Part shown: one piece after another, positions 135 through 48,040 of the stretch | Position numbering within the stretch: position 1 is the stretch's first letter | Layout: every line of letters begins with the position of its first letter | Assembly: GCA_018268055.1 (NCBI GenBank) | Contig: JAFDXF010000019.1 | Span: forward strand, 8,580-72,579 | Reading direction: 5' to 3' | Length of the DNA stretch: 64,000 bases | DNA from: Bacteroidota bacterium | Lineage (GTDB): Bacteria; Bacteroidota; Bacteroidia; Chitinophagales; Chitinophagaceae | Notes under the pieces: generated by a model | Database searches by the model: none | The model's input: the letters and a program-made list of their open reading frames with translations, nothing else | Told to the model about the DNA's origin: nothing | Program-made: the position numbers and the translations under genes

Positions 135-195
135 GTTTTGCCTACTCGTATGGCTTTTCGGCATTCGCCCCTGTTTTGTGAGGGTCAGGTCTTCC
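135..195 (-). ncRNA. Structured leader RNA resembling Bacteroidota motifs of the Flavo-1 / DUF805 type (exact family not determined)
   Basis: Minus strand GACCUGACCCUCACAAAACAGGGGCGAAUGCCGAAAAGCCAUACGAGUAGGCAAAAC. Hairpins CCCU/AGGG and UGCC/GGCA. Ends ~20 nt before the ATG at 115. Family resemblance is from memory only. Confidence 0.5.
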
Positions 196-297: not shown

Positions 298-436
298 ACT
301 CGTAGCAGAAGCAGGAAATGTTTGTAAAAATCATTCGGACACCAAGAGTACTGGCTTTTTACCGATATTGGATTATCACAATTTTCCTGCCTTTGCGCTT
401 ACATAAAGAATTATGCCTGCGTGATTTGCTACGGGT
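298..436. ncRNA. Candidate structured ncRNA (three-way junction), unassigned family
   Basis: Nested inverted repeats: 301-307/427-433, 311-318/383-390, 322-332/371-381, 335-338/362-365, plus side hairpin 396-421. Confidence 0.45.
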
Positions 437-509
437 TTCTTAGTTATGATACTTAAAAGAACTACGTTGTTATATTGTCTTTTGCTGTCAGACAATTAAT
501 TTTCATGAC

Positions 510-917
510 TTAACGAATTTCAAACTGTCCGGTTGCAGTTTCTGTATCGCCATTAAAAACTCTATAGATATAAATACCTCTATTCAGGCTTGTTAACTTG
601 ATATGATCTTTTGATTTCATTTTGTAATTATTCACTAATGAGCCTTGTATGTCAAAAACAAAAAAATCAAGAACATCATTCCCGTCTTTGGCTACAACAT
701 GCATCTCTCGTTTGATAATATCAGGAAAGATTTTTACGGCAGCATTATTTAGTGTTCCGGTCTTGTTATTCTGTTTTGCCGGTTTTTTCTTTTCTTTTTT
801 TATCGGCTCTTCTTTGCCAATATTATCATTTGCAAAAGTGGGTTGTAGTAAAATGAAGCTACCGGCTATTAGCAATGCAGGTATGCTTAGTTTGTGGTTA
901 AAGTTTAATTGTTTCAT
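510..917 (-). CDS. Small T9SS type A sorting-domain protein (signal peptide, short Lys-rich linker, CTD only)
   Basis: Signal peptide ending ...QPTFA. CTD-like motifs VKIFP, FFVFDIQGSLV and LTSLNRGIYIYRV. No passenger domain. Confidence 0.7.
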   Translation of the reverse strand: MKQLNFNHKLSIPALLIAGSFILLQPTFANDNIGKEEPIKKEKKKPAKQNNKTGTLNNAAVKIFPDIIKREMHVVAKDGNDVLDFFVFDIQGSLVNNYKMKSKDHIKLTSLNRGIYIYRVFNGDTETATGQFEIR

Positions 918-941
918 GGGCTCGGTTGTTTTATGTTATGT

Positions 942-1898
942 TTAGTAATATGTGGGACATTTTAGTTGCTTCAAGCGAGGATCCTTTTTATTTAAACGCC
1001 ATCCAAAGCGTATGATACTGGTGAAATAAGCATCATTTTGTTTTGGATCACCACGCTCTGCAAATTCTTGATAGGGGCGAGTGGTAGGAAATGTATAAGT
1101 GCCACGATAATAGAGCCTTCTTGCCCTTACTGCATCGGCAGGTGATAAGTAATGATCAAAATAAATAGGGTCTATATAATAGTTATGACTTACATCATCC
1201 ACATAGTCTGTAAATAATTTACGATGTAATATTTCCAGGCCTACATACATATTTTCTTTTAAATAATATTTAAAACCAAAGCCCATTACTACATTCATTT
1301 GGGTCAACTTGTAAGGTTTGCTATCAGGATATTCAGCCATACCCTGTCCTTCTAATCTTAATGGAGCAAGCTCTACCCATTTCCCATCGATATCCTGCGC
1401 CTTTGGATTGAAGTGAAACATTCCGGCTCCTCCCACTAAATATGGTCTCATCTTTCCTTGTAAGCCTTCATATTTTTCAAAAAAAACAGTTGGATATAGC
1501 TCAATGGCAGCATACGCTTCATTGATATTTGATTTAAAACTAAGGTTTCGATATTTACGATCTTCTTCATCACCACCTTTTGCAGGTGCTTCTGAGTCTT
1601 TGCCTTCTACAAAGCCCATTGTAGCTGATACTCGAAAGCCAAGCCACTCGGTAGGATAGTAATTAAAATACGCAGACTTAGATAATTTTGTCAAGGGAAG
1701 ATTTAAGTCTTTAATAAATGTTTTTCCTACGCCAGCCGTGCCTCCGAGATCACCTAAAAAAAACATTGGACCTACGCCAGCACCCAATTCAAATTTTCCA
1801 TTAGGAGTACTGATGGATTGAGCATTTCCTGTTACACAAAGGATGTTCAGATAAGAAAATAATACGGACAGCCGTAAAAAATGGATACTTGTTCTCAT
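942..1898 (-). CDS. DUF6089-family outer-membrane beta-barrel protein (PorG-like paralog)
   Basis: Signal peptide; ELGAGVGPMFFLGDLGG, RNLSFKS, PLRLEGQG, TDYVDDVS and RGDPKQNDAY motifs typical of DUF6089. Confidence 0.75.
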   Translation of the reverse strand: MRTSIHFLRLSVLFSYLNILCVTGNAQSISTPNGKFELGAGVGPMFFLGDLGGTAGVGKTFIKDLNLPLTKLSKSAYFNYYPTEWLGFRVSATMGFVEGKDSEAPAKGGDEEDRKYRNLSFKSNINEAYAAIELYPTVFFEKYEGLQGKMRPYLVGGAGMFHFNPKAQDIDGKWVELAPLRLEGQGMAEYPDSKPYKLTQMNVVMGFGFKYYLKENMYVGLEILHRKLFTDYVDDVSHNYYIDPIYFDHYLSPADAVRARRLYYRGTYTFPTTRPYQEFAERGDPKQNDAYFTSIIRFGWRLNKKDPRLKQLKCPTYY

Positions 1899-2042
1899 TG
1901 GAATTGGATTTCAGTTTTTCGTTCTATTGGATTTGAATACAAAATAGAAACGGAATTTCCCTTATAAAGAATAAACGATTAAGTATTTTCTTTTTAACGA
2001 CTAAAAAAAGAAGAAGTGCTTAGTGATAATACGAGTGGAGTA

Positions 2043-45916: not shown

Positions 45917-48040
45917 TTAGCGTTTCATGATCTTTTGTGATACTTTACTATCCGGAGTGATTAACTCTAGAATCATAAGTCCACTATTTAGTTTGTCCAA
46001 TCCCTCGTTCACTACCAATATGTTTTCACCTTTTTGTAGGCTAACATTTGAATTATATACTACCTGACCTAAAGTATTAGTAATTCTTAACACACCTGTT
46101 GTTTCAGATAAACTATTTACTTGCAATTTAATATCTGAAGTAAATGGATTAGGGAATACTGTAAAGTCTTTTATTGAACCTCCATTTAATCTTAATGGAA
46201 TTATTTTGCTATAGCTGGATTTTGTATCAGCATCAACAGATTTAATACGATAGTAAACAATTTGATAGCTATAATTGATAGCGTCTGTATATTGATAGCT
46301 GATATCTGAAGCAGAGTTTCCGGCAGCAGATTTCACACCAATCTTTGTGAAGTTTATACCGTCATAACTTCTTTCTATTTCAAAATGATCTGAGTTGATC
46401 TCTGTAGCTGTTTTCCAGTTTAGCATTGCATTATCGCCTTGCTTGCTCACTGTAAAGGAACTCATTATGACAGGTAGTGTAGTTTGCTGAGGGAATACAT
46501 TGCTCGCTAAGTCTTGTAATCCTGAAACAGTTGCTACCCAGAAACAGCCAACAGTACCGCTACCTGTATTTACTGTATTAGCATCTACATAATACAAGCC
46601 TGTAGCCGTAGATATGTAGATAGAGCCAGCCAGGTCAAATGCCACACCATTTACACTTCCAGAGAAAGTATTGCCATTCTCATCAACTAAATCAAATATT
46701 TTGGTAAACGTAGTGTTACTGCCATTAGGTGAGCCTTTAAAAATTCTTGTTACACTACCATCGCTAGAATTTGCCAATGCATAAATAGTACCGTTACCAC
46801 TCACACAAAGATCACCATTAAAGAAATCGGTAGCATTGCCGCCTACCAAACTTACGCTTGCGTCTTCAACGGTAACTGTAGCAGCGCCTAAGCCATTTGT
46901 GCCAGTTGGTACAAATTTCACTAAATATACTGTGCTGCTTGCATCACCTGCTAATATCCATCCCGATCCATCAGGTCCCATGCCAAGACGTACAAAGGTG
47001 AGATTTGTATTGTTGCTGCTTCCATTCACGTCCATAGTTCCTACCTGAGCAATTGTACCGGTTTTATCACGTCCATAAATTGTTACTACACCTGCATTGG
47101 TATTCCAATTGTTAGGCAGGTAATAGAATGTGCCGTTAGCGCCTTGACCTTGCTGATCGCTTAAACCCAATGCAGCTGTAGAGCTACCACCACCTGTACC
47201 GGTGAATGTAGGTGTGAACAAATTTGTAGGACCGGAAAAATAAGTACCATTTGCTACAACAAAGCTTGATACCTTAGTACCATTTGATGATGTAGCCCAA
47301 ATACTTGGTACAGTTGGCGCTGCTGCAAGAACGGTTACTTTTTTAGTGGTTGCAGAGATTGTTTGGCCGCCTGAACCTTGACGTGTAACGGTACAAGTGA
47401 TAAAGTAATCACCGGCAGTAGCAAAGCCACTTGCTGTAGTAGAAACACTTGTTCCTGTTATTGTCTGATTATTATTAGAAAAGCTTAATGTCGCAGGGCC
47501 TGTATTAGACCAAGCATAATTAAAATTAGTGCCACTTCCTGTCCAATTAGTATTATCATTTCTAGTAGCTGTAAGATTGAGTGTACTACCAACCAAAATA
47601 GTAGATACTGACAATGCAGGTGGATTAATCGTAACAGTAGGTACATTAATTTTAACCGTAGTTGTTAAGGTCCCATTTGTAGTATTTGTACCACTGGTGT
47701 TATTAGTGTACGTGTACGTTAGTGTAAAAGTGTATGTGCCTGCAGGTGTATTTGCCGGAATGGTAGCTACGGCATCTGCTGTATTGTTATTGCTACCTGA
47801 GCTAAGAGTCGTAGCACCAACAGTAATAGCATTAAGTGGTGTAAGGTTATTTACAGACCAAGTAGCAGCAGTATAACGGCGATTGGAGGCTGAGGTTCCT
47901 TTAAGTGCCACTGTAGTTGAGGAAGGGCCTATCCAAGTTGAGGGTGCTGCACTTCCAGATTGCGCCATCAATTCTACCGACATATTCAATGTCAATGCAA
48001 GAACGAAGGCAAATTTTAGAATTCTTGTAAATTTTTTCAT
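45917..48040 (-). CDS. T9SS type A-sorted surface protein, Thr/Ser/Gly/Asn-rich, non-catalytic by inspection
   Basis: Signal ...ELMA|QSG; pre-CTD module LPVIMSSF..LNWKTATEINSDHFEIERS; CTD VFPNPF...ITNTLGQVV...SQKIMKR. Confidence 0.88.
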   Translation of the reverse strand: MKKFTRILKFAFVLALTLNMSVELMAQSGSAAPSTWIGPSSTTVALKGTSASNRRYTAATWSVNNLTPLNAITVGATTLSSGSNNNTADAVATIPANTPAGTYTFTLTYTYTNNTSGTNTTNGTLTTTVKINVPTVTINPPALSVSTILVGSTLNLTATRNDNTNWTGSGTNFNYAWSNTGPATLSFSNNNQTITGTSVSTTASGFATAGDYFITCTVTRQGSGGQTISATTKKVTVLAAAPTVPSIWATSSNGTKVSSFVVANGTYFSGPTNLFTPTFTGTGGGSSTAALGLSDQQGQGANGTFYYLPNNWNTNAGVVTIYGRDKTGTIAQVGTMDVNGSSNNTNLTFVRLGMGPDGSGWILAGDASSTVYLVKFVPTGTNGLGAATVTVEDASVSLVGGNATDFFNGDLCVSGNGTIYALANSSDGSVTRIFKGSPNGSNTTFTKIFDLVDENGNTFSGSVNGVAFDLAGSIYISTATGLYYVDANTVNTGSGTVGCFWVATVSGLQDLASNVFPQQTTLPVIMSSFTVSKQGDNAMLNWKTATEINSDHFEIERSYDGINFTKIGVKSAAGNSASDISYQYTDAINYSYQIVYYRIKSVDADTKSSYSKIIPLRLNGGSIKDFTVFPNPFTSDIKLQVNSLSETTGVLRITNTLGQVVYNSNVSLQKGENILVVNEGLDKLNSGLMILELITPDSKVSQKIMKR

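Follow-up and report, generated by a model that had tools for sequence, protein, structure and literature searches.

What is the role of a gene encoding hardly more than the C-terminal sorting domain (CTD) of a T9SS substrate, when it lies immediately behind the gene of an outer membrane barrel, and do the two products work together? The pair resides in a 64,000-nucleotide stretch, hereafter the window, of the genome of a member of the Chitinophagaceae, a family of soil bacteria. Both genes are on the minus strand. The first (942..1898) encodes a DUF6089 outer membrane barrel of 318 aa, a PorG paralog on the evidence of the ORF list, PF19573, NF052316 and an AF2 model, with a predicted signal peptide spanning approximately residues 1-27 (1818-1898). 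The second (510..917) encodes a protein of 135 aa. A preliminary description of the locus had placed a 135-aa ORF 24 bp 3' of the DUF6089 gene on the same strand, and the ORF list matches this exactly, the spacer between the barrel stop and the start of the small gene corresponding to minus-strand positions 918..941. The barrel stop and the small-gene start share one reading frame, in which two TAA codons are found. The barrel gene is flanked by this CTD gene on one side, and by a GNAT (ElaA-like) gene on the other.

Three segments can be distinguished in the small protein. Residues 1-29 (831..917, minus strand) were read by eye as a putative Sec signal peptide, made up by a K-rich n-region and the hydrophobic core LSIPALLIAGSFILL, and terminating with QPTFA, followed by ND; the N-terminal pattern MK...LLxxQxxxA is kept in the family alignment. 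Residues 30-56 (750..830, minus strand) form a cationic linker of 27 aa, disordered according to AF2 pLDDT values. Residues 57-135 (513..749, minus strand) correspond to a type-A-like T9SS CTD, which runs from VKIFPDIIKREMHVV to GQFEIR and ends at the last residue of the protein. Both the Lys/Glu-rich stretch NDNIGKEEPIKKEKKKPAKQNNKTGTLNN and the FPDI sequence replacing YPNP, already pointed out in the preliminary description, are present.

With TIGR04183, which models the type A sorting domain, the small protein reaches 29.8 bits (cut-off 23); with Pfam PF18962 it reaches 24.8 bits, slightly under the 27-bit cut-off. On TIGR04183 the related proteins of loci L024 and L029 reach 32.8 and 37.7 bits, respectively, and that of locus L033 gives no match. 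In the AF2 model, built from 60 homologs, residues 57-135 fold as a 7-strand beta-sandwich (pLDDT 90-96), residues 1-55 are unstructured, and the pLDDT of the linker is below 50. Foldseek comparison with the PDB retrieved two CTDs from structures of substrate-bound translocons, those of RemA (8gl6_D, TM 0.72) and NucA (8glk_D, TM 0.76), with rmsd values of 2.6-2.7. Also found among the top matches were 3sd2 (TM 0.72) and 4g5a, two DUF3244 proteins from Bacteroides thetaiotaomicron. The type A CTD claimed for the C-terminus is thus confirmed by both the HMM search and the predicted fold.

No folded passenger was found in the small protein, the residues between signal peptide and CTD being disordered in the model. 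A profile of the family, searched against 1.84 billion representative proteins, gave only 285 matches at E<=1e-3, of which 82 reached E<=1e-10, which makes the family a narrow one. Proteins of 105-161 aa account for nearly the whole set, and the passenger-less architecture, first noticed in the window protein, is therefore the rule in the family. An exception is the 244-aa form encoded by L029 (genus G064), which features an extra Ig/FN3-like stretch of about 100 aa. Besides the small protein, about 50 type A CTD proteins are encoded in the source genome. One of these, of 113 aa and with the canonical YPNP sequence, is likewise passenger-less; its gene lies on contig C87 with no barrel gene adjacent, and CTD-only proteins are thus not unique to the window locus.

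These data bear on one explanation, in which the small protein would be a type A T9SS substrate of the common kind. PorU would remove the CTD, and a cationic peptide of about 30 aa would be either set free or attached to anionic LPS, the barrel being co-expressed as a PorG-like secretion helper, or through shared regulation. This explanation, which we rate as unlikely yet worth serious consideration, is supported by the TIGR04183 score, by the CTD fold, by the presence of PorU and PorV in the genome and by the C87 protein, which has no barrel gene beside it; the Ig/FN3-like stretch of the L029 form looks like a cargo. The exclusive linkage of the small gene to one PorG paralog is left unexplained.

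The identity of this paralog was established from profile scores and gene context. The barrel scores 30.4 bits on DUF6089 (PF19573), above the gathering threshold of 23.2, and 90.3 bits on the PorG equivalog model NF052316, under the 130-bit cut-off. Three DUF6089 genes reside in the source genome (3.2 Mb, 94 contigs), the window gene and one each on contigs C25 and C31. The C25 gene scores 147.7 bits on NF052316, is flanked by the NAD kinase gene (nadK) and by uppS-bamA, and is the genuine porG of the genome. This Aim-operon context (uppS-bamA), occupied by the C25 gene, is absent at the window barrel. The C31 gene encodes a paralog of 305 aa without the tail cysteine described below, and its downstream gene is convergent. 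Judged by sequence, the window barrel is a paralog of PorG, PorG itself being excluded both by the score and by the separate porG on another contig. The DUF6089 assignment of the preliminary description thus stands; not recognized there were the status of the barrel as a paralog distinct from PorG, and its retention of the PorG tail cysteine.

The AF2 model of the barrel (56 homologs), of modest confidence (mean pLDDT 68.8), has eight long strands, as the outer membrane barrel of PorG does, and three long loops, L1 (residues 49-70), L3 (164-198) and L4 (229-289), predicted from the usual topology to face outwards. Invariant columns in the alignment of the 56 homologs number 109, many of them within the extra-membrane loops of the model. 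Foldseek matched the model to OmpA-TM, Ail, NspA and OmpX, and searching the barrel profile against PDB sequences gave no match. PorG (PGN_0297 / PG0189; Fjoh_1692) is likewise an 8-stranded DUF6089 protein with a periplasmic C-tail carrying a cysteine. The window barrel differs from it in being about 100 aa longer, owing to the long conserved loops, in having the gene of a CTD protein on its 3' side, where porG has none, in being restricted to Chitinophagaceae and close kin, and in missing the nadK-porG-uppS-bamA context. PorG-like paralogs range from 3 to 5 in each of five relatives examined, and most feature an x-C-P-x tail ending. Within 1.5 kb of these paralogs, no CTD-like ORF was detected in the five relatives except in clade A, to which the window barrel belongs.

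The C-tail of the barrel (residues 303-318; 945..992, minus strand) is disordered in the AF2 model, would be periplasmic, and contains Cys314 (codon 957-959), the sole cysteine of the mature protein, five residues from its end. This cysteine is invariant across all clade-A orthologs, and the tail motif R-Q-[LM]-[KR]-C-P-x-[FY]-[FY], or a close variant (N-S-T-R-C-P), was found in every ortholog extracted. The PorG of the same genome ends with SYKCPPTK, the window barrel with KCPTYY, and the PorGs of five relatives with SY[KRH]CPTA[KDN]. The tail cysteine of PorG (Cys232) is disulfide-bonded to Cys356 of PorK, the equivalent partner in GldK being Cys343, and SprF, the carrier of the SprB adhesin, is bonded through the same Cys343 of GldK as PorG (PMC12365241, PMC12635249). 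Two 2025 papers propose that such cysteine bonds tie barrels to a motor-driven track, powering type 9 secretion and gliding (PMC12365241, PMC12635249). The source genome encodes a full T9SS, with GldK (573 bits), PorU (1373 bits), PorV (452 bits) and a GldJ-like protein identified, GldK featuring several cysteines. By analogy with PorG and SprF, we infer that Cys314 would be disulfide-bonded to GldK.

The pairing of the two genes was monitored by protein searches in 100 genera of Chitinophagaceae. All 19 loci retrieved with the small protein have the barrel gene directly upstream on the same strand, at a distance of 11-88 bp, and the GNAT (ElaA-like) gene upstream of the barrel. Searching with the barrel and inspecting the downstream DNA revealed seven further pairs (genera G003, G015, G045, G049, G057, G058 and G064). 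Overall, the pair is found in 26 of the approximately 35 barrel-bearing genera among the 100 sampled, and in about 30 genera when all searches are combined, too many for a chance feature. The synteny with DUF6089 across Chitinophagaceae, which had been put forward as a check, is thereby established, and is specific to this paralog. A small gene away from the barrel was not found in any genome of the 100-genus sample. Clade-A barrels with the tail cysteine lacking the small gene occur in eight genera (G007, G016, G018, G019, G048, G056, G074 and G082), which indicates that the main job of the barrel is independent of the small protein.

Barrel phylogeny by maximum likelihood shows PorG far outside the group and the tail-less paralog forming a derived clade; the small gene accompanies 19 of 20 rows in one large clade and 8 of 9 rows in another. 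The losses in G007 and G016 are nested in the tree, and at least these two are thus secondary. When 300 genomes of the phylum were searched with the small-protein profile, true members were detected in Chitinophagaceae only, and were missing in 2 of 3 congeners; outside the family only generic CTD matches in large proteins were found. In the same 300 genomes the barrel clade is confined to Chitinophagaceae, plus weak relatives with the tail cysteine, and without the small gene, in a sister family.

Adjacency alone is weak evidence, because the unrelated GNAT gene is an equally constant neighbor and the synteny of the region is generally conserved, uvrA being often found downstream (GNAT-barrel-small-uvrA). 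The two genes may thus be functionally unlinked, the small gene having arisen once beside the barrel and stayed there through general synteny; persistence of the barrel after loss of the small gene would fit this explanation as well. We regard it as very improbable. Barrel and small gene are on the same strand and separated by 11-88 bp, whereas the spacer between GNAT and barrel measures about 140-150 bp in relatives, and 144 bp in the window (1899..2042, minus strand). Moreover, both products are thematically related to the T9SS, and features of the transcription unit, detailed below, point in the same direction.

Neither a terminator-like site nor a TAnnTTTG motif was found in or before the 918-941 spacer. 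An exact TAnnTTTG motif is also missing upstream of the barrel, where 1899..2042 contains only the near-consensus TAnTTTG, and a sigma-70 promoter scan is uninformative for Bacteroidota. Given the size of the corresponding spacer in relatives, 1899..2042 probably represents the promoter and leader of the pair. Downstream of the small gene, an iterated nhmmer profile identified a conserved, structured RNA element (299..463, minus strand), present in one copy in the source genome, with a folding z of -4.35; no Rfam family matched. Nearly all related loci have the element on their downstream side, in many cases duplicated in tandem. It was found also in L027 and L031, both devoid of the small gene, and is thus a component of the barrel unit, at its 3' end, and not of the small gene in itself. 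The short spacers, the lack of a terminator or TAnnTTTG motif between the genes and the common 3' element closing the unit suggest that barrel and small gene are co-transcribed, and argue against unlinked genes.

Segments of the pair diverge at different rates. When 351 genome pairs were compared, the barrel showed a mean identity of 52%, the CTD of 37% and the linker of about 16%. In a core group spanning many genera CTDs are 55-72% identical and share 17 invariant positions, many of which are charged. In fast lineages, CTD identity drops to 20-28% while barrels remain 55-60% identical, and the CTD is thus unevenly conserved. In the linker no sequence is conserved; what is kept is its character, with a median length of 31 aa, 37% charged residues and, in 75 of 79 members, a positive net charge (+4 in the window protein). 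A basic patch is found immediately N-terminal of the CTD across the family, and a near-invariant S-L-N-N stretch directly precedes the CTD in the core group. A copper site of the CusF type (Met72, His73, Met100 and His105, invariant in the core alignment) was considered and rejected, as these positions vary in the wider family. In five relatives, no clear orthologs were found of a comparison CTD cargo encoded in the window (45917-48040), only the C-terminal module being shared. The statement that the CTD is conserved rests on its comparison with the linker, and on literature data indicating that type A CTDs show little conservation of the surface contacting the translocon, conserved motifs specifying the fold (Lauber et al., PMC10994853). 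The same authors report that a lysine close to the C-terminus, before the last strand, is almost invariant in type A CTDs and makes a functionally important contact with the translocon (PMC10994853). The corresponding residue of the small protein is Gln131, and the position is occupied by K or R in only 36 of 79 family members, against about three-quarters of the other CTDs of the source genome.

These patterns can be read both ways with respect to an ordinary substrate processed by PorU. PorU sites usually sit just before the CTD, and the S-L-N-N stretch is located there; the preserved charge and length of the linker are expected for a cationic product. Yet the presumed product is barely conserved, and the supposedly disposable tag is. 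The invariant CTD positions of the core group include many charged residues that are likely exposed, and the relaxation of the canonical lysine (PMC10994853) does not suit a standard substrate. Of the two readings advanced in the preliminary description, a CTD with a dedicated barrel partner is hence favored by the identity of the CTD and a released cationic micropeptide disfavored by that of the linker, though the charge of the latter is kept.

Alternatively, the small protein may be a periplasmic regulator or decoy, a free CTD at least partly residing in the periplasm. Such a CTD would either report or tune the T9SS load, in analogy to the action of the PorA CTD on PorY, or sit on the barrel or on GldK and thereby modulate attachment to the track. 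PorA (PGN_0123), a small protein of P. gingivalis with a type A CTD, provides a precedent, as this CTD functions beyond targeting and doubles as a signaling ligand on PorY, with basic residues being important (PMC12152298). The basic patch ahead of the CTD and the relaxed lysine position are in line with this possibility. PorA is described as the smallest type A cargo verified so far (PMC12152298). Unlike the small protein, it includes a folded passenger, with 10 strands and about 130 aa, and is not accompanied by the gene of a barrel partner, and a sequence relationship between PorA and the small-protein family is not detectable. The closest structures include DUF3244 proteins of Bacteroides thetaiotaomicron (BT_3571, BT_1867; PDB 3sd2, 4g5a), free-standing small beta-sandwiches of Bacteroidota equipped with a signal peptide. 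A scan of the small protein for the DUF3244 family gave no match at the sequence level; we know of no DUF3244 protein paired with a barrel, and to our knowledge B. thetaiotaomicron has no T9SS. A regulatory role seems improbable, since the two-gene unit includes neither a sensor kinase nor a regulator gene, and the family is patchy even inside one genus, which would be odd for a core regulator.

We tentatively prefer, while granting it less than an even chance, that barrel and small protein are a carrier and its cargo, tethered to the track. The barrel would be tied through its tail cysteine to GldK on the motor-driven periplasmic track. The small protein would use its CTD to cross the outer membrane via the SprA/PorV translocon; the CTD would then not simply be clipped off, and would serve as a lasting docking domain on the conserved loops of the barrel, in the way PorZ and PorU CTDs dock on PorQ and PorV, or SprB on SprF. 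Together they would form a surface module, small and driven by the track, from which the cationic tail is displayed, with the barrel functional also on its own, and the small protein acting as an accessory client. This reading is favored because the CTD is more conserved than the linker, pairing is exclusive to one paralog, and the barrel loops and tail cysteine are invariant; because T9SS and track genes are present; and because the small protein consists of a CTD only, folded like translocon-bound CTDs. Precedents are available both for barrel-CTD pairs and for cysteine tethering (PMC12635249, PMC12365241, PMC9143113).

A barrel gene adjoining the gene of a CTD protein is the established signature, at the genomic level, of T9SS carrier-client pairs, as in sprB-sprF and PorP-like/type B pairs (PMC9143113, PMC12635249). 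The SprB-SprF and PG1035-PorP pairs, both with type B CTD cargo, are arranged likewise, and the client of SprF rides the track, as tail cysteines of SprF bond GldK. These pairs consist of barrels of the PorP/SprF family and type B CTDs, the window pair of a DUF6089 barrel and a type-A-like CTD, and SprB is huge, the small protein passenger-less. PorU-PorV and PorZ-PorQ provide examples of CTDs retained uncleaved and docked on an outer membrane barrel; yet large functional domains are part of PorU and PorZ, the barrels on which they dock differ from the 8-stranded PorG type, and the gene arrangement is unlike that of the window pair. Additional data weigh against a carrier-cargo pair. Known CTD carriers (PorV, PorP/SprF, PorQ) are large barrels and not of the 8-stranded kind, and the rapid divergence of the CTD in lineages with well conserved barrels is difficult to reconcile with an interface under tight co-evolution. 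The conserved charge of the linker suggests that the tail, rather than the CTD, could be the product.

T9SS barrel-CTD pairs and outer membrane proteins tethered to the track were already known; what is new here is the association of a PorG paralog with a minimal CTD partner. In the full-text literature, no work on DUF6089 beyond PorG was found, and neither passenger-less CTD proteins nor a CTD partner of any PorG paralog were found described. Should the small protein turn out to be just a cleaved substrate, it would be a handy minimal reporter; we know of no shorter class of T9SS cargo. If the two proteins bind, they would represent a natural, stripped-down pair for learning how a PorG-type barrel recognizes a CTD, and could be used to test whether type A CTDs may act as permanent anchors, and how many clients the track has. 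A broader possibility, which we consider rather doubtful, is that, in addition to PorG and SprF, the Bacteroidota track has clients of a third kind, 8-strand barrels disulfide-tethered to GldK and permanently carrying a minimal CTD protein on their conserved loops, and that other paralogs with x-C-P-x tails are clients likewise. If true, the CTD would be a docking domain instead of a cleaved signal, and the pair a new carrier-cargo module. Chitinophagaceae are also flagged, on the basis of the five relatives examined, as carrying 3-5 PorG-like barrels per genome, mostly with Cys-Pro tails.

A conserved, structured RNA element (positions 299-463, minus strand) lies at the 3' end of the unit made up by the DUF6089 barrel gene and the small gene encoding the CTD protein, and in relatives is frequently duplicated in tandem, with two copies at loci such as L009, L016, L011, L015, L017 and L047. 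The small gene has been lost at loci L027 and L031, and the element is still found directly 3' of the barrel gene; the element thus belongs with the barrel unit and not with the small ORF. A weak Rfam match to the DUF805b RNA (positions 152-169, minus strand; 18.2 bits, below the cut-off of 35.6) precedes the gene for a small membrane protein.

The spacer separating the GNAT gene from the barrel gene (positions 1899-2042) features only a near-consensus TAnTTTG. Its length stays near 140-150 bp across genera, in the window as in the equivalent spacers of L008-L026, and so a promoter or leader may be conserved here. In the region 918-944 the barrel and small ORFs share the same reading frame, being separated by TAA-ACA-TAA and six sense codons. 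This is probably a coincidence, since in relatives the length of the corresponding spacer is not divisible by three.

Interrupted barrel genes were observed at two loci. At L019 (genome G083) the barrel gene is split by a TAA or a frameshift, and the small gene is intact; at L086, from a congener with a 2.0-Mb genome (G347), the Cys tail of the barrel is displaced into a different frame, and there is no small gene. Both interruptions could reflect decay or assembly errors.

A second CTD protein lacking a passenger, 113 aa long, is encoded outside the window in the same genome (contig C87, 148337-148678, minus strand), and is made up by a signal peptide, about 14 residues and a type A CTD with a canonical YPNP. 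No barrel gene adjoins it, a gene for a 438-aa phosphodiesterase-like protein being located 156 bp upstream. Among the observed members of the small-protein family, a passenger was seen only in the 244-aa product of the gene downstream of the barrel at L029 (genome G064; 737-1471, minus strand), in which the family CTD (PF18962, 37.7 bits) is preceded by roughly 100 additional residues that are Ig/FN3-like.

PorG-like DUF6089 paralogs number 3-5 per genome in Chitinophagaceae (relatives G011, G049, G057, G069 and G155; loci L116-L123 and L126). Most of them end in a Cys-Pro tail (..INCPVNVY, ..VGCPATRY and ..TACPKM, for example), which suggests that GldK may have several disulfide clients among these proteins in addition to PorG.
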